Positions 34,439-58,913 of a stretch of 64,000 bases of DNA are shown here, in pieces. Both the position numbers and the translations under genes were made by a program. The stretch comes from Thermodesulfobacteriota bacterium (GTDB taxonomy: Bacteria; Desulfobacterota; Desulfarculia; JACQYL01). The notes under the pieces are model-generated. The model was not told where the DNA came from. It was given only the letters and a program-made list of their open reading frames with translations, and made no database searches. Where the stretch lies: assembly GCA_963675595.2 (NCBI GenBank), contig CAXXLZ010000001.1:256001-320000 (forward strand), given 5' to 3'. Positions within the stretch are counted from its first letter, which is position 1, and every line of letters begins with the position of its first letter.

Positions 34439-37285
34439 ATGGCATTATCCGTTGTTAACAATCTTGCATCTTTTTCCGCCCAGCAGGCCCTCACCAAGAG
34501 CACGTACCATCTTCAGAAGGCCCTGAATCATCTTTCCACCGGCTACCGCATCAACAGTGCGGCGGACGATCCCTCCGGCTTGGCCATTTCCGAGCGATTT
34601 CGCGGTCAGATTCGAGGCCTGGAGCGCGCCACGGCCAACGCCCTGGATGCTCAGTCCATGCTGCAGACCGCCGAAGGCTCGCTGGGGGAAACGCACGCCA
34701 TTCTTCAGCGCATGCGGGAACTGGCCGTTCAGGCGGCCAACGGCGTGCTCACCGGAAGCGACAGACAGGAACTGCAGCGCGAGGTGGATCAATTAAAGGA
34801 AGAAATCGACCGCATCGCCACGGCTACCGAGTTCAATACCAAGAAGCTTCTCGATGGATCCTCGGCCGCCCTGTGGAGCGCGGACGGATCGGATATCACC
34901 GCGATCATCCGAGGTCGCGTTGTGGAAGGAAACTACAAGCTGGTCAAGAACGCCGAGCCCCTGACCAATCATGTGTTGAAAACGGACATTTTTCGTTTGA
35001 AGGACGGAGCGATCTCACAAGAGGAGGAAGGGTCCGCCAACCAGTTGCGCTTCACCTTCGGTGGGGATGACGGTGAATTAACCGTGGCGGGCGGATCGAC
35101 CCTGAATTTCCGTTTCAACTTCGACGGTGTGAACAACATCGATATCGGGGTAACGGCGGGATCCGCGGACGGAAGCGGATTTACGGACGCCGAATACCTG
35201 GCGAGGGTGATCAACGCCAACTCGACCATCAGCCGATACGTCGAGGCCGAATTGGTTTCCGAAGGCGATATTGTTTTGCGGTCCAAAGAAGTCACGGAAA
35301 TCGGAGACAATTATACTCTGCAACTGGTCACCGCCGGGGGCGGGGCTTCCGCGGTGGCGGCGTGGCAGCCCAACATTACCAATTGGGGCGGAGATGAGTT
35401 GAGCTCGACCCAGACGAGCAACAACCTCTGGACTACCGCGGTACGATTCGCCGATTTCGATCTTGTTGTGGGGTCGACGGCATCGGGAACCATGGGAACC
35501 TTCGGCACGGACCGCGCGACGGCCGCCGAGAACAAAGTGATCCAATATGTGAGTAATGCGGCGGAGCTCGAGGGCGGCGACTACGAAATCACCACTGTGG
35601 CGGCGGATAACATCCCCAGCGGCCTGCAGGGTGCGGATGGTTTGAGCGTCGACGCCGGCTTGCTCATGGGCGCCTATATGAAGAGCTCTTCCACTGCGGA
35701 AGTCACCACGATTCAGGCCGCCGTGGACGCAAACCATTACGTGATCGTCGAGGTCACCGGGGCCGGCGGGAGCGGCGTGGTGGACCTCAAAGTCTCCTGG
35801 GATCAGGGCGCCACCTGGACCAACATCGGCAACTACCATGAGGGCGCGTCAATTAATAAGCTAGCCGGGGATCCGGATAACTGGTTCTCCTTGCAGTTCA
35901 ACGGCGATATGGCTACGGGGGACCGTTTGCTCATCGGATTGCAGAATGGAATCGCAGCGACCTCCAACGTGGCGCGGCTCACGGGTCCCGCCAACGAATG
36001 GACCAACATAGCGGATTCCGACGGTGGATGGGACCCGAGGGAGAACCTCGCCGGCGCGGACTTCCAGTATTTCAATCATGGGCTTTGGGAAGATTTGGGT
36101 GCCAACCCGGGAAGCAAAACCGATACTTTGACCTTTGCCCGCATGGACGAGGAAGGACGCGTAACCTTTGGCACGCTGGACGTCACCTGGGGCACCGATG
36201 CCAACTTCGAGAGCAGAAGTTCGAGCATCAACATTCTCCAAGGGGGAGACGTCGCCGGCTTGACCACGGAACTGTCCAAAATCGACCGGTTCTACGACGC
36301 CAATGGAAATTTTATTCTGGGCGATAACGGCAAGTGGATCGACATCTACACCGCCGCGGGAGATCAGGCTTCTTTTTATGTGGACGGCGGCGACACGGTA
36401 AAGGAGCTTGCCGATAAGATCGAGCAGATCATCAGCCTGGAGGCCACCTCTCAAAACTGGGAAGGCCTGGGATTGGGCACCGTACTGGATTCCGAAGGCG
36501 AGAATCATGTGGTGGACTTTGTTACCAACGCCACGGAGAACTCCGACGAAGCGGTCAAGGGAACCCTGCTCATTCGGTCGCCGAAACAAGGATTGAGCGG
36601 AATCCTTTACTTCAGCGCGGAAGAAGCCGTGCTCAACGCTCTGAGTCTGGCCACGATTAAGGACCCGTCCGAGGACGTGGACCCGTTGACGGTTGAGGTA
36701 TACGATGCGCACACGGGGGAATTGATCGGACAGGATACGGTAAGCGACAACGTGCTTCACGGCGTCATCCAGGGAGTTGATGTTCTGGTGGACGCCAATG
36801 TGGACATCAATTACTCCTGGAACGAAAACACCAAAGAAATCGACTTCTACAGCGCCACCGAAGACCAGATCGAATACCTGCACGTTGTGGACAACTCGGT
36901 GAATTTTCAGATCGGCGCCAACCCCGGGCAAATCATGGAAGCTCATATCTCACAGATGGATGCTTTGGGGCTCGGAATCGAAAACGTGCTGGTCGTGAAC
37001 CAAGCCACGGCAGTGGCCGCCTTGGACAGCATCGATGAGGCCATCCAACGGGTGTCTTCAGAACGCGCCCGACTGGGTGCCTATGTCAACCGACTCGATT
37101 TCACCATTTCGAACCTGGCCGTTCAGGAGGAGAATCAGATCGCAGCCGAGTCCCTGATTCGCGACCTCGACATGGCCATGGCCATCTCGGAGATGACCCA
37201 GTACCAGATTCTGCAGCAGGTGGGCGTTGCCATGTTGGCTCAGGCCAATGCCATGCCTCAGAGCCTCCTCAGCCTGCTCGGATAA
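34439..37285 (+). CDS. fliC: Flagellin 1 (948 aa)
   Basis: LSTGYRINSAADDPSGLAISE, LQRMRELAVQAAN, FQIGAN, RARLGAYVNRL, AMLAQAN. Confidence 0.96.
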   Translation: MALSVVNNLASFSAQQALTKSTYHLQKALNHLSTGYRINSAADDPSGLAISERFRGQIRGLERATANALDAQSMLQTAEGSLGETHAILQRMRELAVQAANGVLTGSDRQELQREVDQLKEEIDRIATATEFNTKKLLDGSSAALWSADGSDITAIIRGRVVEGNYKLVKNAEPLTNHVLKTDIFRLKDGAISQEEEGSANQLRFTFGGDDGELTVAGGSTLNFRFNFDGVNNIDIGVTAGSADGSGFTDAEYLARVINANSTISRYVEAELVSEGDIVLRSKEVTEIGDNYTLQLVTAGGGASAVAAWQPNITNWGGDELSSTQTSNNLWTTAVRFADFDLVVGSTASGTMGTFGTDRATAAENKVIQYVSNAAELEGGDYEITTVAADNIPSGLQGADGLSVDAGLLMGAYMKSSSTAEVTTIQAAVDANHYVIVEVTGAGGSGVVDLKVSWDQGATWTNIGNYHEGASINKLAGDPDNWFSLQFNGDMATGDRLLIGLQNGIAATSNVARLTGPANEWTNIADSDGGWDPRENLAGADFQYFNHGLWEDLGANPGSKTDTLTFARMDEEGRVTFGTLDVTWGTDANFESRSSSINILQGGDVAGLTTELSKIDRFYDANGNFILGDNGKWIDIYTAAGDQASFYVDGGDTVKELADKIEQIISLEATSQNWEGLGLGTVLDSEGENHVVDFVTNATENSDEAVKGTLLIRSPKQGLSGILYFSAEEAVLNALSLATIKDPSEDVDPLTVEVYDAHTGELIGQDTVSDNVLHGVIQGVDVLVDANVDINYSWNENTKEIDFYSATEDQIEYLHVVDNSVNFQIGANPGQIMEAHISQMDALGLGIENVLVVNQATAVAALDSIDEAIQRVSSERARLGAYVNRLDFTISNLAVQEENQIAAESLIRDLDMAMAISEMTQYQILQQVGVAMLAQANAMPQSLLSLLG

Positions 37286-38345: not shown

Positions 38346-41162
38346 ATGGCATTGACTGTTGTCAATAATATTGCTTCATTCGCTGCTCAGAAGGCCCTCA
38401 GTTCGAGTACCACTCACCTGCAGAACGCCCTGAACAGCCTTTCCACCGGCCTCCGCATCAACAGCGCGGCGGACGACCCGTCCGGACTGGCGATTTCCGA
38501 GCGGTTCCGCAGCCAGATTCGAGGCTTGGAACGCGCCACGTCCAACGCCTTGGACGCTCAGTCCATGCTGCAAACCGCGGAAGGCTCCCTCGGAGAAACC
38601 CACGCCATCCTGCAACGTATGCGCGAACTGGCGGTTCAAGCGGCCAACGGCGTGTTGACCGCAAGCGACCGGCAGGAAGTTCAGCGCGAAGTGGACCAGC
38701 TCAAAGAAGAAATCAACCGCATCGCCAACACCACCGAGTTCAACACCAAGAAACTGCTGGACGGTTCCTCCACGGCCCTTTGGAGCGCGAACAATTCCGA
38801 CATTGAAGCGGTCATTCGCGGAAAGGTGGCCGAAGGCAACTACAAGCTGGTGAAGAGTGCGGAGCCGCTGAGCAACCAGGTACTGAAGACGGATATCTTC
38901 CGGCTGAAAGACGGGGCCATCTCCCAGGCGGAAGAGGGTTCTCCGAACCAGATGCGGTTCACTTTCGGCGGATCGGATGCGACAATAGACGGAACCGGGG
39001 CGTCGACATTGACGTTCCGGTTCAACTTCGACGGCGTGAACAACATAGACGTATCGTTGAACTCGGCGTCGGGAGACGCCGCCCTCTTAACCGACGCGCG
39101 GTATTTGGTGGATGCCCTCAACGCCAACGCGACCATCAGCCAATACGTCGAAGTGGAGCTGGTGTCCAACTCGGACATTATCATTCGGTCCAAGGGGGTA
39201 ACGGACGAAAGCGACAATTATACCCTTCAGCTGGTGACCGGCGGAGGCGGTGCGTCGGCCGTGGCGGCGTGGCAGGCCAACATCACCAACTGGAGCGGAG
39301 ATGAGCTGAGTTCGACCCAGGCGACCAACAACCTCTTTACTTCCGCGGTCCGTTTCGCGGATTTCGATCAGATCGAAGGTCAGGTGAACTCGGGAGTGAC
39401 GGGCACCTTCGGAACGGACCGAACCACGGCCGCGCAGAACAAGGTGATCCAGTATGTGAGCAACGCCGAGAACCTCGAAGGGGGCGATTACGAAATCCTT
39501 ACCCTGTCGGCGAACGACTTTCCGAGCGGTACGGCGGGCGGAATCGGCGCTGTGGACTCCGCGTGGATTTTGGGCGCTCATCGACAAAGTTCGTCCACGG
39601 GAGAGATCGTGACCCTTACGGCGAGCGTTGACGAGAACCAGTACGTCATCGTCGAAGTGACCGGCGCAGGGGGCAGCGGCGTGGTGGACCTGAAGGTTTC
39701 CTGGGACCAGGGAGAAACCTGGACCAATGTTGGGAACTATCATGATGGGACTTCCATCAATAAGACTACCGGAGACCCGGCCAACTGGTTCTCCATGGAC
39801 TTGAACGGTGACTTGGCCACCGGCGACCGGTTCCTTTTCGGTCTGCAGGACCAATTGGATACGACCTCCAACTATGCCAGGCTGACGGGTCCCGCCAACG
39901 ATTGGTCGACCAGCTTGACCGCGGATCTGACGGAAGACTACGAGAACTTCAACCACGGGTTATGGCAGGACCTGGGAGCCAATCCGGGTGAGAAGACCCA
40001 TACCCTGACGCTTGCGAGCATGGACGAGGAAGGACGGGTGACCTTCGGCACCCTCGATGCCACCTGGGGAATGGATGACGATTTCGAGAGCCGAAGCTCG
40101 AACATCAAGATTCTCGAGGGCGGCGACGTTGCCGGTCTGACCACGGAGTTGTCCAAGATCGATCGATTCTACGACTCCAGCGGGAACTTCGTCCTGGGCG
40201 ACAGCGGCAAATGGATCGATGTCTACACCGCCGACGGAGACAACGCGTCGTTCTACGTGGACGGCGGTGATACGGTTCAGGAGCTTGCCGACAAGCTGGA
40301 ACAGATCATCAGCCTAACCTCGACTTCCCAAAACTGGGATGGTCTGGGGCTGGGCACGGTGCTGGACTCCGACGGCGAGAACCACGTGGTGGATTTCGTT
40401 ACCAACGCCACGGAGAACTCCGACGAAGCCGTCGAAGGAACCATGATCATTCGTTCGCCCAAACAAGGGGTCAACGGCTACCTCTATTTCAGTGCGGAGG
40501 AAGACCTGCTCAACGCCCTGAGTTTGGCCACCATCCAGGACCCCAAGGAAGACATCGATCCTCTCACGGTCACCGTATACAACGCCCACACGGGCGAGTT
40601 GATCGGCGAGGACACGGTGAGCGACAACGTCCTGCACGGAGTCATCCAGGGTGTGGACGTAATGGTGGACGCCAATGTGGACATCTCTTACTCCTGGAAC
40701 GATGATACTCGAGAGATCGACTTCTACAGTTCGGAAGGAGTGCAGGAAGAGTACCTCCACGTGGTGGACAATTCGGTGAACTTCCAGATCGGCGCCAACC
40801 CGGGCCAAGTGATGGAAGCCTACATCACACAGATGGATACCGTGGGATTGGGCGTTCAAAACGTTCTGGTGGTGAACCAGGAGACGGCCTCCGATGCCAT
40901 GTCCACCATCGACGACGCCATCCAAAGGGTGTCCTCGGAACGCGCCAGGCTGGGCGCTTACGTGAACCGTCTCGACTTTACCATCTCGAACCTGGCGGTT
41001 CAGGAGGAAAACCAGATCGCGGCGGAATCTTTGATCCGCGACCTGGATATGGCCAAGGCCATTTCCGAAATGACCCAGTACCAGGTGTTGCAGCAGGTGG
41101 GTGTGGCCATGCTGGCCCAGGCCAATACCTTGCCTCAGATGGTGCTGTCCCTACTCCGGTAA
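38346..41162 (+). CDS. fliC: Flagellin 2 (938 aa)
   Basis: Conserved flagellin N- and C-terminal motifs; paralog of its neighbours. Confidence 0.96.
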   Translation: MALTVVNNIASFAAQKALSSSTTHLQNALNSLSTGLRINSAADDPSGLAISERFRSQIRGLERATSNALDAQSMLQTAEGSLGETHAILQRMRELAVQAANGVLTASDRQEVQREVDQLKEEINRIANTTEFNTKKLLDGSSTALWSANNSDIEAVIRGKVAEGNYKLVKSAEPLSNQVLKTDIFRLKDGAISQAEEGSPNQMRFTFGGSDATIDGTGASTLTFRFNFDGVNNIDVSLNSASGDAALLTDARYLVDALNANATISQYVEVELVSNSDIIIRSKGVTDESDNYTLQLVTGGGGASAVAAWQANITNWSGDELSSTQATNNLFTSAVRFADFDQIEGQVNSGVTGTFGTDRTTAAQNKVIQYVSNAENLEGGDYEILTLSANDFPSGTAGGIGAVDSAWILGAHRQSSSTGEIVTLTASVDENQYVIVEVTGAGGSGVVDLKVSWDQGETWTNVGNYHDGTSINKTTGDPANWFSMDLNGDLATGDRFLFGLQDQLDTTSNYARLTGPANDWSTSLTADLTEDYENFNHGLWQDLGANPGEKTHTLTLASMDEEGRVTFGTLDATWGMDDDFESRSSNIKILEGGDVAGLTTELSKIDRFYDSSGNFVLGDSGKWIDVYTADGDNASFYVDGGDTVQELADKLEQIISLTSTSQNWDGLGLGTVLDSDGENHVVDFVTNATENSDEAVEGTMIIRSPKQGVNGYLYFSAEEDLLNALSLATIQDPKEDIDPLTVTVYNAHTGELIGEDTVSDNVLHGVIQGVDVMVDANVDISYSWNDDTREIDFYSSEGVQEEYLHVVDNSVNFQIGANPGQVMEAYITQMDTVGLGVQNVLVVNQETASDAMSTIDDAIQRVSSERARLGAYVNRLDFTISNLAVQEENQIAAESLIRDLDMAKAISEMTQYQVLQQVGVAMLAQANTLPQMVLSLLR

Positions 41163-42310: not shown

Positions 42311-45157
42311 ATGGCATTGACTGTTGTCAACAACATTGCTTCCTTTGCTGCTCAGAAGGCGCTCAGCTCGAGTACCACTCACCTGCAGAACGCCCTGAAC
42401 AGCCTTTCCACCGGCCTTCGCATCAACAGCGCGGCGGACGATCCGTCCGGACTGGCGATTTCCGAGCGGTTCCGCAGCCAGATTCGGGGCTTGGAACGCG
42501 CCACGTCCAACGCCTTGGACGCCCAGTCCATGCTGCAAACCGCGGAAGGTTCTCTCGGAGAAACCCACGCCATCCTGCAACGTATGCGCGAACTGGCGGT
42601 TCAGGCGGCCAACGGCGTGTTGACCGCAAGCGACCGGCAGGAAGTTCAGCGCGAAGTGGACCAGCTCAAGGAAGAGATCAACCGCATCGCCAACACCACC
42701 GAGTTCAACACCAAAAAGCTACTGGACGGCTCCTCCACGGCCCTCTGGAGCGCGAACAATTCCGACATTGAAGCGGTGATTACGGGAAAGGTGTCCGAAG
42801 GCAACTACAAACTGGTGAAGAGCGCCGAGCCGCTCAGTAACCATGTGTTGAAGACGGACATTTTCCGGCTGAAAGACGGAGCCATCTCGCAGGCCGAAGA
42901 GGGGTCCGCGAACCAGATGCGCCTCACTTTCGGTGGAGACGACGGAGAAGTGACCGTCGCAGGCGGATCGACCCTGAACTTCCGGTTCAACTTCGACGGT
43001 GTAAACAACATCGATATCGGAGTAACCGCAGGATCCGCCGACGGCACGGGCTTTACGGACGCTGAATATCTGGCGCGGGCCATCAACGCCCACTCGACCA
43101 TCAGCCAGTACGTGGAGGCGGAACTGGTGTCCGAGGGCGATATCATTATTCGCGCCAAGGATGTGACGGACGACAGCGACAACTACACGCTGCAAATGGT
43201 GACCGCCGGAGGCGGCGCGTCGGCCGTGGCGGCGTGGCAGCCCAACATCACCAATTGGGGCGGTGATGAACTTAGCTCGACCCAGACGAGCAATAACCTC
43301 TGGACTTCCGCGGTCCGTTTCGCGGATTTCGATCAGATCGAAGGTACGGTCAACTCGGGAGTCACGGGCACCTTCGGTACGGATCGGACCACCGCCGCCG
43401 AGAACAAGGTGATCCAGTACGTCAGCAACGCCGCCGATCTCGAAGCGGGCGACTATCAGATCACAACGGTGGCAACGGGCGACATCCCCAGCGGTTTGCA
43501 GAGTACGGACGGTCTGACCGTGGATCAGGGTCTGCTCATGGGCGCTTATCTCACGAGCACGTCCACGGCGGAAGTCACGACGATTCAGGCGGCCGTGGAT
43601 GAGAATCAGTACGTTATCGTCGAGGTGACGGGAGCCGGCGGCAGCGGCGCGGTGGACCTGAAGGTTTCCTGGGACCAGGGCGCCACATGGTCCAGTGTCG
43701 GGAACTACCACGAAGGAACCTCCATCAACAAGGTCGCCGGAGACCCGGACAACTGGTTCACGCTGGAATTCACCGGGGACATGGCGACCGGAGACCGCTT
43801 GCTTATCGGGCTCCAGAACGGGATTGCAGCGACTTCCAACGTGGCGAGGCTGACCGGTCCGGCCAACGAATGGACCAATGTAACGGATTCCGACGGAGAT
43901 TGGGACCCGAGGGAAAACCTGGCCGGGGCGGATTACCAAACCTTCAATCATGGGCTGTGGGAAGACCTGGGGGCCAATCCCGGTGAGAAGACCCATACCC
44001 TGACGTTTGCGAGCATGGACGATGAAGGGCGGGTGACCTTCGGCACCCTCGACGCCACCTGGGGCGCGGATGACGACTTCGAGAGCCGAAGCTCGAGCAT
44101 CAAGATTCTCGAGGGCGGCGACGTCGCCGGTCTGACCACGGAGTTGTCCAAGATCGATCGGTTCTACGACTCCAGCGGGAACTTCGTCCTGGGCGACAGC
44201 GGCAAATGGATCGATATCTACACCGCAGAAGGAGACAACGCGTCGTTCTATGTGGACGGCGGCGACACGGTGCAGGAGCTTGCCGACAAGCTGGAGCAGA
44301 TCATCAGTCTCACCTCGACTTCCCAGAACTGGGATGGTCTGGGGCTGGGCACGGTGCTGGACTCCGACGGCGAGAACCACGTGGTGGATTTCGTTACCAA
44401 CGCCACGGAGAACTCCGACGAAGCCGTCGAAGGAACCATGATCATTCGTTCGCCCAAACAAGGGGTCAACGGCTACCTCTATTTCAGTGCGGAGGAAGAC
44501 GTACTCAACGCCCTGAGTTTGGCCACCATCCAGGACCCCAAAGAAGACATCGATCCTCTCACGGTCACCGTATACAACGCCCACACGGGTGAGTTGATCG
44601 GTGAGGATACGGTGAGCGACAACGTCCTGCACGGAGTCATCCAGGGTGTGGACGTGATGGTGGACGCCAATGTGGACATCTCCTACTCCTGGAACGAGGA
44701 TACTCGAGAGATCGACTTCTTCAGTTCGGAAGGAGTGCAGGAAGAGTACCTCCACGTGGTGGACAATTCGGTGAACTTCCAGATCGGCGCCAACCCGGGC
44801 CAAGTGATGGAAGCCTATATCACACAGATGGACACCGTGGGATTGGGCGTTCAGAACGTTCTGGTGGTGAACCAGGCGACGGCCTCCGATGCCATGTCCA
44901 CCATCGACGACGCCATCCAGAAGGTGTCCTCGGAACGCGCCAGGCTCGGCGCCTACGTGAACCGTCTCGACTTCACCATCTCGAACCTGGCGGTTCAGGA
45001 GGAAAACCAGATCGCGGCGGAATCTTTGATCCGCGACCTGGATATGGCCAAGGCCATTTCCGAAATGACCCAGTATCAGGTGTTGCAGCAGGTGGGTGTG
45101 GCCATGCTGGCCCAGGCCAACACGTTGCCTCAGATGGTGCTGTCCTTACTCCGGTAA
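42311..45157 (+). CDS. fliC: Flagellin 3 (948 aa)
   Basis: Conserved flagellin termini; patchwork similarity to flagellins 1 and 2. Confidence 0.96.
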   Translation: MALTVVNNIASFAAQKALSSSTTHLQNALNSLSTGLRINSAADDPSGLAISERFRSQIRGLERATSNALDAQSMLQTAEGSLGETHAILQRMRELAVQAANGVLTASDRQEVQREVDQLKEEINRIANTTEFNTKKLLDGSSTALWSANNSDIEAVITGKVSEGNYKLVKSAEPLSNHVLKTDIFRLKDGAISQAEEGSANQMRLTFGGDDGEVTVAGGSTLNFRFNFDGVNNIDIGVTAGSADGTGFTDAEYLARAINAHSTISQYVEAELVSEGDIIIRAKDVTDDSDNYTLQMVTAGGGASAVAAWQPNITNWGGDELSSTQTSNNLWTSAVRFADFDQIEGTVNSGVTGTFGTDRTTAAENKVIQYVSNAADLEAGDYQITTVATGDIPSGLQSTDGLTVDQGLLMGAYLTSTSTAEVTTIQAAVDENQYVIVEVTGAGGSGAVDLKVSWDQGATWSSVGNYHEGTSINKVAGDPDNWFTLEFTGDMATGDRLLIGLQNGIAATSNVARLTGPANEWTNVTDSDGDWDPRENLAGADYQTFNHGLWEDLGANPGEKTHTLTFASMDDEGRVTFGTLDATWGADDDFESRSSSIKILEGGDVAGLTTELSKIDRFYDSSGNFVLGDSGKWIDIYTAEGDNASFYVDGGDTVQELADKLEQIISLTSTSQNWDGLGLGTVLDSDGENHVVDFVTNATENSDEAVEGTMIIRSPKQGVNGYLYFSAEEDVLNALSLATIQDPKEDIDPLTVTVYNAHTGELIGEDTVSDNVLHGVIQGVDVMVDANVDISYSWNEDTREIDFFSSEGVQEEYLHVVDNSVNFQIGANPGQVMEAYITQMDTVGLGVQNVLVVNQATASDAMSTIDDAIQKVSSERARLGAYVNRLDFTISNLAVQEENQIAAESLIRDLDMAKAISEMTQYQVLQQVGVAMLAQANTLPQMVLSLLR

Positions 45158-45661: not shown

Positions 45662-45974
45662 CAGAGCTGATTTCCACCCATCTCGTGTGGGAGGACGCTT
45701 GATCGCTTCCCGGCAAGTTCGAAAAGACATGGGGAGCGTAAAGGGTGTGGTATGTCCTGAGAAGCGAATGTTTCCCTCCGCCCTTGTATCTCATCTCTCG
45801 CCGTGCTTCGAAGGTCCCGAAGTACTCTCCGGCTTCGGGGCTTCTATTCCGATGCTGCGGTCCGGCGCCTCTTCTTGGCCTCGCTCCCAATCCCCAACCG
45901 CTTGTCACCCGTTGTGGTTTCGCCTACAATACGATTCCTTTGGCAAATCCAGACGAGGAAGGAATCTATTGGTC

Positions 45975-46451
45975 ATGACTTGGAAGCGTAAGGTAATGCG
46001 TCTCTTTTACTTGGGCGCGGTGGTTTGTCTGGTTGGAACGCTGGCTGTTTCCTCGGCCGCCGCGGCGAAAGTCCGGTGGGAGTCCTATGACGAAGGGATC
46101 GCTCGAGGAAAGAAGGAGCAGAAGAAGATACTGGTGAAGTTTCACGCGGATTGGTGCACTTACTGCAAAGAGATGGAGCGGACCACCTTTTCCGATCCGG
46201 AAATCGTGGCCTACATCAATCGCTATTTTGTTCCCGTGTCCGTGGATACGGATAAACAGAAGGGGCTTGCCGTCAGGTACCGGGTGAACAGTCTTCCGGC
46301 TTCCTGGTTCTTGGATTATAAAGGTGAGCAGATCCTTCCCGTGCCGGGATATGTACCCCCAAAAATGTATCTTTATTTCCTGGAATGGATTGCGGAGGAC
46401 GGGTACAAGGATACGTCCCTGAAGGACTTTCTGAAGAATAAGAAGGAATGA
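45975..46451 (+). CDS. Exported thioredoxin-family protein
   Basis: Signal peptide and FHADWCTYCK CxxC motif. Confidence 0.88.
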   Translation: MTWKRKVMRLFYLGAVVCLVGTLAVSSAAAAKVRWESYDEGIARGKKEQKKILVKFHADWCTYCKEMERTTFSDPEIVAYINRYFVPVSVDTDKQKGLAVRYRVNSLPASWFLDYKGEQILPVPGYVPPKMYLYFLEWIAEDGYKDTSLKDFLKNKKE

Positions 46452-46527
46452 GCCGGAAGGAATGATCCTCCGATTTCCGTCGTGGGGACCGGAAGGGCGG
46501 GGAAAGGATCGGCTTCCCGGGGTCCGG

Positions 46528-47268
46528 TCAGAGCTTATTCACGAACCATTCGGGTGCCACGCTTTGCAGGTAGCTGTTGATGGTCGCCAGGCTGTCCGTG
46601 AAGATCAACAGACCCACCAGAACCAACAATATCCCGGCGAAGAGGTTGAATACCGGGAGCCACCGTTTGATTCGGCTGAGCAGTGGAAGAAAATGACCCA
46701 CCGCCAGGGACGCGAGAAAGAACGGGACCGCCATTCCGAGGGAATAAGTGGTCAGCAGGATGATTCCCTGGGTTGCATTCTGATGGGTCCCCGCAACCAT
46801 TAGAATCGACCCGAGAATGGGCCCCACGCACGGAGTCCAGCCCACCGCGAAAGTGATTCCCACCAACGTCGTTCCCAAATAGCCGGCAGGCTTGTGCCGC
46901 AAGTGAACCGAGAATTCCTTCATCAGAAAAGGAAGCTGAAACTTGTATGAGAGGGCGATGAGCAGGCCGAAGAGGATGATCAATATCCCCCCGACCTTTC
47001 GGATGATATCCCCGTAGTCGAAAAAGAAACTCCCGAGGGTGCTGAAAGAGAAGCCCAGCGCCACAAAAGCGATCGAAAAACCGAGGATGAAGAAAAGGGA
47101 GTGGATGATCACCCGTCTACGGTATACGGGCTGGTCCTCAATGGCGATCTGATCGTAGCTGAGGCCGGTAATAAAGCTCAAATAGGAAGGGAACAACGGA
47201 AGGGTGCAGGGGGACAGAAAGGTCAACACCCCGGCGGTGAAAGCGATAAGGATGGTCACATCGGCCAA
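46528..47268 (-). CDS. ccdA: Cytochrome c biogenesis / DsbD transmembrane protein CcdA
   Basis: AGVLTFLSPCTLPL and GWTPCVGPILG motifs. Confidence 0.92.
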   Translation of the reverse strand: MADVTILIAFTAGVLTFLSPCTLPLFPSYLSFITGLSYDQIAIEDQPVYRRRVIIHSLFFILGFSIAFVALGFSFSTLGSFFFDYGDIIRKVGGILIILFGLLIALSYKFQLPFLMKEFSVHLRHKPAGYLGTTLVGITFAVGWTPCVGPILGSILMVAGTHQNATQGIILLTTYSLGMAVPFFLASLAVGHFLPLLSRIKRWLPVFNLFAGILLVLVGLLIFTDSLATINSYLQSVAPEWFVNKL

Positions 47269-47350: not shown

Positions 47351-47509
47351 TCATGAGTTGTCCTCTTCTCCCATATCGTCCCGCTTTTTCGAGTCACCGA
47401 CCCGACACGAGGACCGCATTCACGTATCCACCCCCAGTCCGGGAAGCACCACCGCTTGCAGCAGCACCCATAAGCCGACGACGATCAGAAAAATCCAAAC
47501 TTCGTTCAT
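47351..47509 (-). CDS. Small single-TM protein, putative selenoprotein (52 aa if TGA at 47420-47422 is Sec)
   Basis: GGAG SD; MNEVWIFLIVVGLWVLLQAVVLPGLGVDT-(TGA)-MRSSCRVGDSKKRDDMGEEDNS; SECIS-like hairpin after the TGA. Confidence 0.6.
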
Positions 47510-47539
47510 TGTATTCTCCAACGCCCGGTTGGAGCCTGC

Positions 47540-47761
47540 TCAACCTCAGGAAAAGGGTGAAGACGACGGTCCGCAACTCGAACGGGCTGATGAGGCAACG
47601 CTCCCGTTTAGAGGACCGGAGCAGGTCGCAAAGGCGGATAGGAGTCTCTTTGGGTTGGATGCTCCACACTTGGGGCATTTGACCTCTGCAACCTTTCCCA
47701 AGGAGACGATTTCTTCAAAGTGGTGTGAGCATTGGTCGCAACAAAACTCGTACAACGGCAT
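47540..47761 (-). CDS. FmdB-family zinc-ribbon protein, putative C-terminal Sec-Gly
   Basis: MPLYEFCCDQC...CPKCG...KRLLSAF; GGAGG SD; ends TCC TGA GGT TGA with a hairpin starting 11 nt after the first TGA. Confidence 0.78.
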
Positions 47762-47925
47762 ACGTTTTTTCCTCCGGCGCACTGTACGCTCCTTCCAGGA
47801 GCGTCGTATGAGTTCAATTCACTGTTAAACATTTTCCAGTTTTTTTCAAGGAGCATATCCCTCCCGGACCGGGAGCCGTTCCTTCGGCCGCTCCGGAGAC
47901 TCCGTTTCAGCGGCTTCAGGTTTCA

Positions 47926-48141
47926 TCAGCCTCACCCGCAACAGGATCTTTTAACGGCTGGACTAGGCGATCCTTCCCGGCCTTGTTCGGCACTTGTTCG
48001 TTTCTTGACGTCGCATCCCGAACGGCCCGTATTCCGGCTTCCGCAATGGGGGCATTTCTCTTTTCGCAGCCTCCACCCTCTCGCGACAGCCGAAAATACG
48101 CTCTCACAGTCCCCACACACGAATGTTACAGGCGCTTTCAT
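47926..48141 (-). CDS. Small zinc-ribbon protein, putative C-terminal CCG-Sec-Gly
   Basis: CGDC and CPHC pairs; AGGAGG SD; ends TGC GGG TGA GGC TGA TGA followed by a hairpin. Confidence 0.65.
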
Positions 48142-48194: not shown

Positions 48195-48986
48195 TTACAC
48201 GTTTCTATGGATAGGAGTGAAGAAAACCTTTTCCGAAGGCTTCGCGTCCAGAAACCCGGCGACGGGACTCAGGTCGGCCAAGCGACGGGTAAGGTTGGGC
48301 CAAAACCCCTCTCCACCCAAGTGGAGCCACCCGCCGATGTGGACGAGAACACCGCCTGATGCGGCCTTTGTCCGAGCCCAAAGACGCCGGATTTTACGCT
48401 CCATGGTATCGGTCCTTCGATTCCATTCCACCGACGTATCGCCATCCATAAGAATCAGCTCCCAAGGCGCAGACTTTCCGTGAAAGCGGACGGCCACTTG
48501 CTTTCTGAGGTTTTCGAAACTCTCGGATGGGTGACGGGGCGCGAGTCTAAGCATGGCCTCGAGATTGGGCATCGAGATCAGTTCTTCGAGAAATGGGAGC
48601 TTGTTTTTTGAGGATTCCGAGTCGTCCGTGCAAACCACCGTTGTAGACCTGGAATGGGCGTAGTCCCGGCTCGCGCTGAACTCGAAAGGCAGGGCGATCT
48701 GGTTCCTGATGTTCCGAAATGGCTCGAGCTGGAGGATGGACTCGATCTCAAGGTTTCTTTTTTTTGCCAGAAGACGCAGCCGCTCATCGAGGAGTTGCAG
48801 TTGTCTACGGGCGTGCTTCATTCGGAAACGGACTGCATAGGGACTGGTTTCGACACTGACGATCGTGGGACCGATGCGGTCGAGCATTCGCTTAAGCAGT
48901 TCTTCCCCTCTCGGGTCCCTGTGGATCGTACCAAGAAGGAAAAGACGGGCTTCCGGAACGGCTGTGGAGTCCGCCGAAGGGCTCAA
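48195..48986 (-). CDS. Hypothetical protein
   Basis: 263-aa ORF overlapping the HDOD gene stop; LLGTIHRDP and HIGGWLH motifs. Confidence 0.65.
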   Translation of the reverse strand: MSPSADSTAVPEARLFLLGTIHRDPRGEELLKRMLDRIGPTIVSVETSPYAVRFRMKHARRQLQLLDERLRLLAKKRNLEIESILQLEPFRNIRNQIALPFEFSASRDYAHSRSTTVVCTDDSESSKNKLPFLEELISMPNLEAMLRLAPRHPSESFENLRKQVAVRFHGKSAPWELILMDGDTSVEWNRRTDTMERKIRRLWARTKAASGGVLVHIGGWLHLGGEGFWPNLTRRLADLSPVAGFLDAKPSEKVFFTPIHRNV

Positions 48987-49825
48987 GTCTTCAGGAGGAA
49001 GGGCGTTCGTTTGAGCTCTCGCTTCAGTTCGGCGAGGCTGCGATCCATGACGTCCTCCGTCAATCCCGCAATTTCCAGAACGTCGCGAAACTCACGGAAG
49101 CTCCAATTATCCACGCCGAGTCCGATGCCGGCCAGCTTGCAGCATCGGTCGGCGAGATAGATCAGGGCCGTGATGGGGTGCCCTTTCCGAACTTCCTCAA
49201 TGGTGTGGTGAGTGCGTATGGGTTCACTGATGCTTGACGGGAGCTGCCATTTATCGGCCACCTCTCCCCCCACGGCGGCGTGGTCGATACCGATGATCTC
49301 TCGTTCCGCTTCCACGAAAGTGTAATTCTCTTCAGTAACCAAGTGCATAATTTCCCGAAATCGGTCTTGGACAAAAGAGTTCAGAACGACCTTGCCGATG
49401 TCGTGCAGCAGGCCGGCGGTGAAGAGGGCCGAGGGGTCCGCCTCAGGATTGGAAGCACCCAGAATTTGCGCCAGGAGGGCGCAGGAAACGGAGTGACGCC
49501 ACATCTCCCGAGCCGCCATTCCGTACCCGGGAACATCGGTGGTGTAGTAACTTAGAGACCCTCCGATGACGGCCAGCTCGATCACCTCCTGTGGGCCCAG
49601 AAGCTGAACGGCGCGCCGAAGAGAGCTGATTTCCTCCTGAAAGCCGAAATATCCCGAGTTACATAGCCGCAGCACCGTGGCTGTGATGTTTTGGTCGTAC
49701 TTGATCACATCCACAATCTCTCCCGGAGGAGCGTTCCGGCTCCGCATCAGATCGAAGGCTCTGTGAACCGTCGCCGGAAAAGGAGGAAGACTTTTGATGG
49801 AATAGAGTATTTTCTGACCCACCAT
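48983..49825 (-). CDS. HDOD domain protein
   Basis: SLPPFP, DQNITATVLRLCNSGYFG, WRHS, AGLLHDIGK, GIDHAAVG. Confidence 0.92.
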   Translation of the reverse strand: MVGQKILYSIKSLPPFPATVHRAFDLMRSRNAPPGEIVDVIKYDQNITATVLRLCNSGYFGFQEEISSLRRAVQLLGPQEVIELAVIGGSLSYYTTDVPGYGMAAREMWRHSVSCALLAQILGASNPEADPSALFTAGLLHDIGKVVLNSFVQDRFREIMHLVTEENYTFVEAEREIIGIDHAAVGGEVADKWQLPSSISEPIRTHHTIEEVRKGHPITALIYLADRCCKLAGIGLGVDNWSFREFRDVLEIAGLTEDVMDRSLAELKRELKRTPFLLKT

Positions 49826-57198: not shown

Positions 57199-57900
57199 AT
57201 GTTGTCGTATCTTCCCCAAGGGGGCGTATCCGTCGACGATGCGGGATCGGCCCAGCTTCCGATCCGGTTGCGTTTTGAACGGATCGCGGAAAGCGCCCCC
57301 GACGTGGAGTCTTTCGCGTCCAGGGCGATGAAGCTTTTGGGCGATCTCGTCAACGCCCGGAGCATTCAGTTGATCGTTCCGGATTTCAAAAGAGATCGAC
57401 GCTTGATTCAGGCCAAGTTGACGAGAAACGGCGGGAAACGGCGGATGGAATTCGACGACTCGGAATTCTTCTACCAGAAATCGGGGGTCAAGCGGAGGAG
57501 AACTCCGACCTATCTCCTTCAATCACTCTATCTCTATGCCCTGGAACTCCCACAACGCTGGTCCGCGACCTTGCGAATCGAGTTTCCGGGCATTTCCATC
57601 TTGTCTTATTCCGATGATTCAAACCTCAGGAAACTGCTCAGGTCCATGAGTCGCGGTCTTCATGTCGTGCTCATGAACGAGGAGCTGCATCGTTTGGAAA
57701 GACGTGTGGAGGAAGAGGAACAAGTCAACCAGGACCTGAGGGAGTTTACCGCGAACCTGAGTAAGGAATTGCATTGTTTAAGTAGTTTCTCCACGGTTCT
57801 GGGGCAAATCTTCAATGTGGCCGAGATTCCGTTTGGATTCCGACGGGTCCATGTTTTTCCGACACGGTGGACCGGCCCCGGCCGGAGGAGGAACGCATGA
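57199..57900 (+). CDS. Hypothetical protein, possibly a truncated sensor/regulator
   Basis: Coiled-coil-like ELHRLERRVEEEEQVNQDL followed by an abrupt low-quality tail overlapping the next ATG. Confidence 0.45.
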   Translation: MLSYLPQGGVSVDDAGSAQLPIRLRFERIAESAPDVESFASRAMKLLGDLVNARSIQLIVPDFKRDRRLIQAKLTRNGGKRRMEFDDSEFFYQKSGVKRRRTPTYLLQSLYLYALELPQRWSATLRIEFPGISILSYSDDSNLRKLLRSMSRGLHVVLMNEELHRLERRVEEEEQVNQDLREFTANLSKELHCLSSFSTVLGQIFNVAEIPFGFRRVHVFPTRWTGPGRRRNA

Positions 57901-58913
57901 TCGTAGACGTGGTGTATGGATTCTTGGGGGCGGGAAAGACCACCTTTGTACGCCGGCTTCTGGACCGCCCCCCCAAGGGAGAAAAGCTCGTCGTGCTTGT
58001 CAACGAATTCGGCGAAGTGGGTTTGGACGGGCTTCTGCTGGCCGAGCAAGGAGCCGACATCGTTGAAATGCCTTCAGGCTGCATTTGCTGTACCATGTCC
58101 ACGGATTTTCGTCGGCGCTTCATGGAAATCCATGAGGAGTTCTCACCGGACCGTATCGTGGTCGAGCCCACCGGAGTGGCCACCATTTCGCAAATTCAAA
58201 GCCTGCTGGAAAGAGAGGACCTGCGTCCCCTCTATTCCCACGTCTACCGGATTCACGTACAGGACGCCTCCGAGTTCCTTCACTTCATGAAATCTCATCG
58301 GCACTTCATGATTAACCAGGTGCGGGGAAGCAACGTGGTGGTGCTCAACAAAACCGATCTGGTCGAACCCAACCTTGTGCGCATGCTGGTGGACTCCATC
58401 AAAGAAATCAATCCCGACGCTCGGGTGTTCCCCACGACCTTTGCCCTGTTGGATGAAGAGCTCATGCCGGAGATTTTGGGGGCGCCTTCTCCCATCGTTT
58501 CCGCCGTGGATACGTCGGAGGTCCCCCACGGTCATGAACATGCTCCCTTGGAGCACGGAGAATCGGTTTCCGGACACGATCACGATCACAATCATGATCA
58601 CAATCACGAAGAAGAGGACTGGGGGTTTGCCGGCCGATATGCGTCGTTCGGGCGTCGTTACTCCGAAGGTCAGGTCTTCGAGCCGGAGTGTCTGATCGGT
58701 CTTTTCGAGAAACTGATCCGCAAGGACCTTGGAATGGTAGTACGGGCCAAAGGAGTTTTCCGCGTTCCCGGTGAGTGTCTGAAACTGGAAATCGCTTCGG
58801 GACAGCTTCGTCGTGAGGAAGGACCTCGCACCCCGGAAAGTGTGGTCTCCATCATCGGACAGTTTTTGAACACGGAAGCGCTGGAGGCGCACTTGCGGAA
58901 ATGTCTGGTTTAG
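57897..58913 (+). CDS. CobW/COG0523 family GTPase metallochaperone
   Basis: GFLGAGKTT, VNEFGEVGLDG, GCICC, VEPTG, NKTD, His-rich tract, RAKG. Confidence 0.92.
   Translation: MIVDVVYGFLGAGKTTFVRRLLDRPPKGEKLVVLVNEFGEVGLDGLLLAEQGADIVEMPSGCICCTMSTDFRRRFMEIHEEFSPDRIVVEPTGVATISQIQSLLEREDLRPLYSHVYRIHVQDASEFLHFMKSHRHFMINQVRGSNVVVLNKTDLVEPNLVRMLVDSIKEINPDARVFPTTFALLDEELMPEILGAPSPIVSAVDTSEVPHGHEHAPLEHGESVSGHDHDHNHDHNHEEEDWGFAGRYASFGRRYSEGQVFEPECLIGLFEKLIRKDLGMVVRAKGVFRVPGECLKLEIASGQLRREEGPRTPESVVSIIGQFLNTEALEAHLRKCLV

Follow-up and report, generated by a model that had tools for sequence, protein, structure and literature searches.

A cluster of FmdB-type zinc ribbons and a membrane peptide upstream of ccdA, and selenocysteine as a candidate reading of their TGA codons

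In the bacterial model of selenocysteine (Sec) insertion, as embodied in the bSECISearch criteria, a SECIS hairpin with a G in its apical loop lies just 3' of the UGA, and the loop falls 16–37 nt from that codon. When Sec is placed near the C-terminus of a protein, any SECIS must therefore sit past the stop codon. Animal thioredoxin reductase is of this kind, ending in the Sec-containing tail GCUG. The use of Sec is common in Deltaproteobacteria and other lineages of the Desulfobacterota type. FmdB-family selenoproteins from the GOS metagenome are described, in the available text of three papers, as carrying the predicted Sec within the zinc-ribbon motif in the form CxxU or UxxU (PMC2398784, PMC9312934, PMC13188914). 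The available part of a 2026 review names UXX-star, SaoC and UXPK-star as bacterial families in which Sec is two or three residues away from the C-terminus, so that a -Sec-Gly end is mechanistically possible, and lists UxxxxU as the motif of TsoB (PMC13188914). A full-text literature search returned no report of an FmdB or zinc-ribbon protein with Sec in its tail or of a selenoprotein linked to CcdA.

The DNA analysed here is a stretch of 64,000 nucleotides from a Thermodesulfobacteriota bacterium (assembly GCA_963675595.2, contig CAXXLZ010000001.1, positions 256,001 to 320,000), which is referred to as the window and within which all positions below are counted. A first-pass annotation of this DNA had proposed that three tiny genes upstream of ccdA, facing a thioredoxin, form a redox module based on Sec.

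Layout of the locus and its genes

Four closely spaced minus-strand genes, g1, g2, g3 and ccdA, run from 48141 to 46528, and no terminator-like site was found between them. The genes, the open stretch past the TGA of g3, the hairpins that follow the three TGA codons and the neighbouring thioredoxin-fold gene are as follows.

47932..48141, minus strand: g1, a divergent FmdB-like zinc ribbon of 69 aa with CGDC and CPHC pairs and an AGGAGG ribosome-binding site
47881..47920, minus strand: g1 hairpin, GCCGCU..CGGA-GUC-UCCG..AGCGGC, a 40-nt structure with the apical loop GUC
47546..47761, minus strand: g2, an FmdB-family zinc ribbon of 71 aa with an MPLYEF.. start and CDQC and CPKC pairs
47516..47534, minus strand: g2 hairpin, CUCCAAC-CGGGC-GUUGGAG, starting 11 nt past the TGA (-8.4 kcal/mol)
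47420..47509, minus strand: g3, a single-helix membrane peptide of 29 aa, MNEVWIFLIVVGLWVLLQAVVLPGLGVDT, with its stop TGA at 47422..47420
47351..47419, minus strand: the stretch past the TGA of g3, 22 open codons, MRSSCRVGDSKKRDDMGEEDNS, and the next TGA (47353-47351)
47389..47405, minus strand: g3 hairpin, UCGGGUC-GGU-GACUCGA, 7 bp, starting 14 nt past the TGA (-7.1 kcal/mol)
46528..47268, minus strand: ccdA, a DsbD/CcdA-type membrane thiol-disulfide electron transporter of 246 aa with a TTG start
45975..46451, plus strand: a thioredoxin-fold gene with the motif WCTYC, convergent (tail-to-tail) with ccdA; its longest ORF begins at 45687

Ribosome-binding sites of the form AGGAGG, GGAGG or GGAG lie 6–9 nt ahead of the ATG in g1, g2 and g3, and g2 and g3 share one common reading frame. 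The tail of g1 reads ..KRSCCG and is followed by TGA (47934-47932), GGC, TGA and TGA, a run that occupies 47934..47923, and that of g2 reads ..SSCGPSSSPFS and is followed by TGA (47548-47546), GGT and TGA (47542-47540), so that TGA-GGT-TGA spans 47548..47540. The two zinc ribbons ending in TGA-GGN-TGA and the membrane peptide with its in-frame TGA are thus present where the first-pass annotation had placed them. Its description of each TGA as lying near a Cys holds for g1, with Cys 2 and 3 residues before the codon, and for g3, with a Cys 5 residues after it; for g2 it is true in a loose sense, the closest Cys being 9 residues before the TGA.

CcdA belongs to the DsbD_TM family (PF02683, 71.7 bits against a cut-off of 27.1), and its catalytic residues Cys21 (SPC) and Cys147 (TPC) are invariant across 11 aligned sequences. 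The thioredoxin-fold protein has a hydrophobic N-terminus, carries WCTYC, resembles the C-terminal domain of DsbD and is of periplasmic type; there is a promoter-like site at 45902..45930. The best NCBIfam match of both proteins is TsoB (NF045694), a DsbD-like selenoprotein. Both are partial matches (CcdA 56.1 bits, thioredoxin-like protein 66.8–66.9 bits, against a cut-off of 805) and the rhodanese domain is absent, which places neither protein in that family; the matches reflect shared DsbD-type domains only. Upstream of CcdA relatives with 38–50% identity in 10 other genomes, no genes resembling g1, g2 or g3 were found, one locus (L003) having 105 nt of upstream sequence only.

Stop codons, hairpins and a probable ordinary operon

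TGA is the commonest stop in the window, closing 30 of 52 crude non-overlapping ORFs, and its use as a stop is uninformative on Sec. The 9-mer TGA-GGN-TGA occurs four times in the window against 2.3 ± 1.5 expected and is not enriched overall, and two of the four copies are the stop sites of g1 and g2. Of 48 larger ORFs, 3 have a further in-frame stop at +1 or +2, and the chance that two neighbouring paralogues would agree in the Gly codon class that separates their stops is estimated at roughly 1e-4 per pair, before allowing for window selection. The twin TGA-GGN-TGA at the neighbouring paralogues g1 and g2 is unusual. Searching the window for further genes interrupted by an in-frame TGA gave no candidate, only antisense shadows and adjacent genes that share a frame.

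Each of the three TGA codons is followed by a hairpin with a G in its loop, as the first-pass annotation had said, the G being in the first two loop positions in all three cases. The g1 hairpin starts 11 nt past the first TGA and, at -16.0 kcal/mol, is in the top 6.1% of the 1970 TGA triplets of the window by a detector based on minimum free energy (MFE), which places g2 in the top 12.9%. A detector of perfect stems finds that 86 of the 1970 triplets reach -7.5 kcal/mol; by this measure g2 scores -8.4 and g3 -7.1, and g1 gives no stem. The folding z-scores of the regions around g1, g2 and g3 lie between -0.2 and -0.8 relative to shuffled sequence and are not significant, and 13 of 48 ordinary stops in the window (27%, TAA and TAG included) pass the hairpin thresholds that the three candidates pass. 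Since similar hairpins are common at real gene ends and the folding is no better than that of shuffled sequence, the hairpins carry little weight for Sec. In the case of g2, the GGAG that serves g3 as ribosome-binding site (47519..47516) falls within the 3' arm of the hairpin, which gives this hairpin a possible function unrelated to Sec.

We lean towards regarding the TGA codons of g1, g2 and g3 as ordinary stops and not as hidden Sec codons, and the reading that we favour, with a probability of roughly 0.6, is an ordinary operon in which the three small genes are co-transcribed with ccdA and each of them ends at a normal UGA stop. In such an operon the g2 hairpin would sequester the ribosome-binding site of g3, and termination of a ribosome 11 nt upstream would melt the hairpin, so that translation of g3 would be coupled to that of g2; the second in-frame TGA of g1 and of g2 would act as a back-up stop. 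CcdA would pass reducing equivalents from the cytoplasm to the thioredoxin-fold protein, and the position of the genes suggests that g1, g2 and g3 may be accessory factors of the CcdA pathway on the cytoplasmic side or in the membrane. If the TGA codons are plain stops, the locus is a routine operon of FmdB-type small proteins and a micro-peptide beside ccdA, whose minor interest is that it may have an accessory part in the reduction of periplasmic thiols.

Selenocysteine and read-through readings of the TGA codons

The g2 protein is a member of a large FmdB subgroup in which a single tail Cys is invariant and the C-terminus is a conserved ..G-F-S/T. Near the N-terminus it has two CxxC pairs spaced by about 17 residues, as FmdB proteins do, and it lies above both curated cut-offs (52.8 bits for PF09723, cut-off 34.4; 56.4 bits for TIGR02605, cut-off 31.3). 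A word-indexed search with g2 found 14 relatives, including the MAG proteins P0005 and P0006, which are 67–69% identical to it. Five of these relatives (P0005, P0006, P0007, P0012 and P0018) stop at the position of the window TGA with ..CGPSS(S/R)(P/G)F(S/T), and the remaining ones run on into a Cys-rich ..CGxCGDPRGPGAC-SMD tail. P0005 is MBI4776604.1, P0006 clusters with P0167 and P0168, P0007 belongs to a cluster of 15 members, and MGC1404375.1, MFP3927305.1 and MFP4474734.1 are likewise close to g2. The named relatives, all of them MAG proteins, are assigned to Deltaproteobacteria, Thermodesulfobacteriota, Desulfobacteraceae, Desulfatibacillaceae, Zixibacteria and Krumholzibacteriia. A profile made from six sequences of the ..FS type and run against 1.84 billion representatives gave 19,140 matches at E<=0.001, the best 150 of which end in F[ST] (82), in F[GRK] (12) or otherwise (56). 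From the end states of these 150 relatives, ..GF[ST] is the ordinary C-terminus of a large FmdB subgroup; the common end of the five word-search relatives might suggest truncated selenoproteins, a reading rejected because the survey makes that end the family norm. A local profile search of the window and the fetched CcdA loci gave no further family member, and tblastn on plasmids and phages gave zinc ribbons of other subgroups only, namely a Thermomicrobium roseum gene ending ..CSTGGG-TGA and a Methylococcus gene.

An alternative that we hold to be unlikely, and that the twin TGA-GGN-TGA of the two paralogues brings to mind, is that g1 and g2 encode selenoproteins whose C-termini read ..CCG-U-G and ..PFS-U-G, a -Sec-Gly-COOH tail comparable to the GCUG of animal thioredoxin reductase. 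The hairpin 11 nt downstream would recode the first UGA, and the second UGA would terminate translation. A zinc-ribbon protein ending ..GFS-COOH would have acquired such a tail by capturing its ancestral UGA stop, and the new Sec, paired with the invariant Cys of the tail, would make up a centre for redox chemistry or metal binding, located on the cytoplasmic side of the CcdA pathway. The families with near-C-terminal Sec that the available part of the review lists (PMC13188914) lend it plausibility. The relatives of g2 come from lineages rich in Sec use, which also speaks for it. A residue Cys just after the ..GF[ST] end, the Cys counterpart of the proposed Sec, occurs in none of the best 150 of the 19,140 profile matches, and 94 of these 150 simply end there. 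In a first alignment the putative Sec of g2 fell under the last Cys of the ..CGxCGDPRGPGAC-SMD subgroup, and this candidate was dropped when hhalign aligned the g2 profile with the Cys-rich-tail subgroup up to the invariant tail CG, short of the TGA position, and left the tails unaligned. Read-through or Cys-extended forms were likewise not found in three clusters of g2 relatives. Homologues with Cys at the TGA positions, which the first-pass annotation had named as a check, were found for none of the three genes, and on these sequence comparisons the Sec reading lacks positive comparative support, the Cys-homologue test having failed for g2.

The DNA that follows the g2 stop in a relative is a point on the other side. 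The protein P0168, from the P0006 cluster, is a frameshifted prediction whose tail crosses the stop region in another frame, and the post-stop DNA of an orthologue could be inferred from the residues of P0168 together with the tail of P0006, giving one inferred sequence. This DNA begins ..TCN T[AG]A G[AG]G T?A, and five variable bases separate these codons from a match to the arms of the window hairpin; its stop, as derived from P0168, is TGA or TAA. Of 32 constrained positions, 23 match the window, where the background is 10.4 ± 2.5 and a score of 23 is reached at the true site only, and this agreement with one inferred orthologue indicates that the post-stop region is under constraint. Conservation of the region thus holds at a protein identity of only 67–68%. 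The first-pass annotation had named a lack of conservation downstream of the codon as evidence against its proposal; in this one inferred orthologue, conservation was seen instead. The arms of the g2 hairpin and their spacing are compatible with the inferred DNA, and so is the T[AG]A-G[AG]G-T?A order of codons. In the middle codon GG is kept and the third base differs (GGC in g1, GGT in g2, G[AG]G in the inferred orthologue), which is the pattern of a translated Gly codon. On sequence grounds the post-stop conservation would fit a translated Gly codon followed by a SECIS, and it would also fit a conserved coupling hairpin with tandem stops.

The geometry of the hairpins, with starts 11, 11 and 14 nt past the TGA codons of g1, g2 and g3 and with a G in each loop, agrees with the bacterial SECIS model. 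In g2 the loop lies 18 nt from the first UGA and 12 nt from the second, so that the first UGA alone is within the 16–37 nt window, whereas in g1 it lies 31, 25 and 22 nt from the three UGA codons and the first is not singled out. The frequency of similar hairpins after ordinary stops, given above as 27%, further weakens the argument. For g1 no relative was found by word-indexed search, which counts against the Sec-Gly reading. The g1 protein has the FmdB Cys pattern and falls under both cut-offs (23.7 bits for PF09723, cut-off 34.4; 18.0 bits for TIGR02605, cut-off 31.3), and it matches the profile of the g2 family weakly, at E=0.0026 in a small local hmmsearch. None of the NCBIfam selenoprotein models, those of the near-C-terminal Sec families (UXX-star, SaoC and others) included, matched g1, g2 or g3 at E<=1, and within the 64-kb window there is no tRNA, no Rfam match and no sel gene among the 44 larger ORFs.

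It is quite unlikely, in our estimate, that the locus holds as many as three unrecognised small selenoproteins working with CcdA, that is, two zinc ribbons with Sec-Gly tails and a membrane-anchored UxxxxC peptide. The consequences of Sec-Gly tails would nevertheless reach beyond this locus. A route by stop capture leaves no Cys homologues, and proteins that took it would for that reason be missed by standard selenoprotein searches. If Sec-Gly tails are true, selenoproteins can arise through stop-codon capture, searches that rely on Cys/Sec alignments are blind to extensions of one or two residues, and a redox-active or metal-binding tail would be the first biochemical handle on the widespread and function-less FmdB family. 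If the whole FmdB subgroup ending in ..GF[ST] shares the tail, it would amount to a large hidden selenoprotein family of Desulfobacterota-type bacteria.

The reading of g3 as a selenoprotein does not exclude Sec-Gly tails on g1 and g2, nor they it. Here g3 would be a membrane-anchored protein of 52 aa with an N-terminal helix followed by T-U-MRSS-C (UxxxxC) on the cytoplasmic face; the hairpin 14 nt past the UGA would direct decoding, and the UxxxxC motif would exchange electrons with CcdA. The first 29 codons of g3 look strongly coding: their codon-usage score is +0.77 per codon, and the other two frames give -1.07 and -0.25. For the 22-codon extension the g3 frame scores best of the three (+0.05 against -0.42 and -0.38) and has a GC3 of 0.68. 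With coding pieces at 0.44 ± 0.29 and off-frame pieces at -0.56 ± 0.37 as references, this score is under 92% of real coding pieces and over 97% of off-frame pieces, and since it falls between the two classes the extension is ambiguous. Past the UGA come 22 open codons, with a Cys at a distance of 5 residues, although an open stretch of this length is expected by chance about one time in three (an estimate). The 7-bp hairpin presents its GGU loop 21 nt from the UGA, but the MFE fold of the region leaves this hairpin unchosen. That TsoB, with its UxxxxU motif, is the best NCBIfam match of CcdA and the thioredoxin-like protein might be taken as an architectural analogy only, and the scores, 56 and 67 bits, are far under the 805-bit cut-off. 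Homologues are also wanting: g3 matched no Pfam or NCBIfam family, word-indexed search returned the identical 29-aa form (P0004) alone, and tblastn on plasmids gave matches at chance level (E>=0.4). Taken together these results make Sec in g3 decidedly improbable.

That g2 and g3 form one read-through protein of zinc ribbon, linker, membrane helix and tail, with all intervening TGA codons decoded, is barely credible: the two genes do share a frame, and the orthologue-derived DNA is compatible with conserved in-frame residues over the hairpin, but three recoding events within 45 codons would be required, g3 has a ribosome-binding site and an ATG of its own, a search among proteins of 40–130 aa gave no fused relative and no family spans both halves.

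Comparison with known systems

Whether its small genes end at their UGA codons, as we favour, or read through them, the locus can be set beside four kinds of described system. The GOS FmdB selenoproteins belong to the same domain family as g1 and g2. The first-pass annotation was correct that selenoproteins of FmdB type are in print, but in the available text the Sec of these proteins lies in the CxxC of the ribbon and not in the tail (PMC2398784, PMC9312934). Sec there replaces a ribbon Cys, whereas all four ribbon positions of g1 and g2 are occupied by Cys and their candidate Sec would stand next to last in the tail.

In UXX-star (NF041114, NF041211), the Cys-Cys-COOH SaoC (NF040734) and animal thioredoxin reductase, Sec is 1–3 residues from the C-terminus, and the putative ..CCGUG of g1 resembles the ..GCUG of the animal enzyme; the fold family of g1 and g2 differs from that of all three. 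The closest likeness of g2 itself is to the FmdB subgroup ending ..SCGxxxGGF(S/T) (TIGR02605 CxxC_CxxC_SSSS / PF09723 Zn_ribbon_8), with which it shares the MPxYE[FY] start, the two CxxC pairs, a low-complexity Ser/Gly tail, one invariant tail Cys and an F-S end. In comparison with this subgroup g1 has the same ribbon layout, a shorter ..SCCG tail and scores below the cut-offs, and the TGA-GGN-TGA of g1 and g2 is not a known trait of the family.

Finally, the locus resembles the CcdA/DsbD transporters that work with a thioredoxin-fold partner, in that a DsbD_TM protein with both catalytic Cys residues and a neighbour similar to the DsbD C-terminal domain are found here too. In contrast to the fused selenoprotein TsoB (NF045694), the corresponding parts are separate genes at this locus and the rhodanese domain is absent.

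Possible upstream extension of the operon and the frame shared by g2 and g3

The two genes that precede g1, the first small zinc-ribbon gene ahead of ccdA, are as follows:

48195..48986, minus strand, 263-aa ORF immediately upstream of g1
48983..49825, HDIG-domain gene preceding this ORF, with a 4-nt overlap

Given this arrangement, the g1-g2-g3-ccdA operon may start further upstream than g1. The 263-aa ORF has no match in Pfam or NCBIfam.

The FmdB-family zinc-ribbon gene g2 and the membrane-peptide gene g3 lie in a single reading frame (47354..47761, minus strand), so that read-through of all TGAs would fuse them into one 136-aa protein with a zinc ribbon and a membrane helix; no family spanning both halves was found. 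About 38 nt of the DNA downstream of a g2 orthologue could be inferred, as degenerate bases, because P0168, a member of the cluster of the close g2 homologue P0006, is a frameshifted database prediction that crosses the stop region in a different frame.

Other features in the window

46452..46527, 76-nt gap separating ccdA from the thioredoxin-fold gene that converges on it
34439..37285, plus strand, giant flagellin gene (948 aa)
38346..41162, plus strand, giant flagellin gene (938 aa)
42311..45157, plus strand, giant flagellin gene (948 aa)
57867..58913, plus strand, CobW/ZigA-type GTPase gene

The gap can form a GC-rich hairpin (GACCGGA...UCCGGUC; minimum free energy -22.4 kcal/mol for the 71-nt stretch folded), which could act as a two-way terminator. 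The three flagellin genes are arranged in tandem, and their products all combine conserved N- and C-terminal flagellin domains with very large central regions; matches to the flagellinolysin model were partial and weak. The GTPase gene scored 71.9 bits against the CobW-related selenoprotein model, below the cut-off of 180, and no in-frame TGA was noticed in it.

An FmdB-like gene in Thermomicrobium roseum

L011 592..795, FmdB-like zinc-ribbon gene on the Thermomicrobium roseum megaplasmid NC_011961.1

The encoded protein has a tail ending in SCSTGGG, followed by a TGA stop. The first 4 nt of the gene are shared with the end of an ArsR/SmtB regulator gene, and genes for a DUF302 protein and an MBL-fold hydrolase lie after it; this neighborhood hints at metal or sulfur stress.
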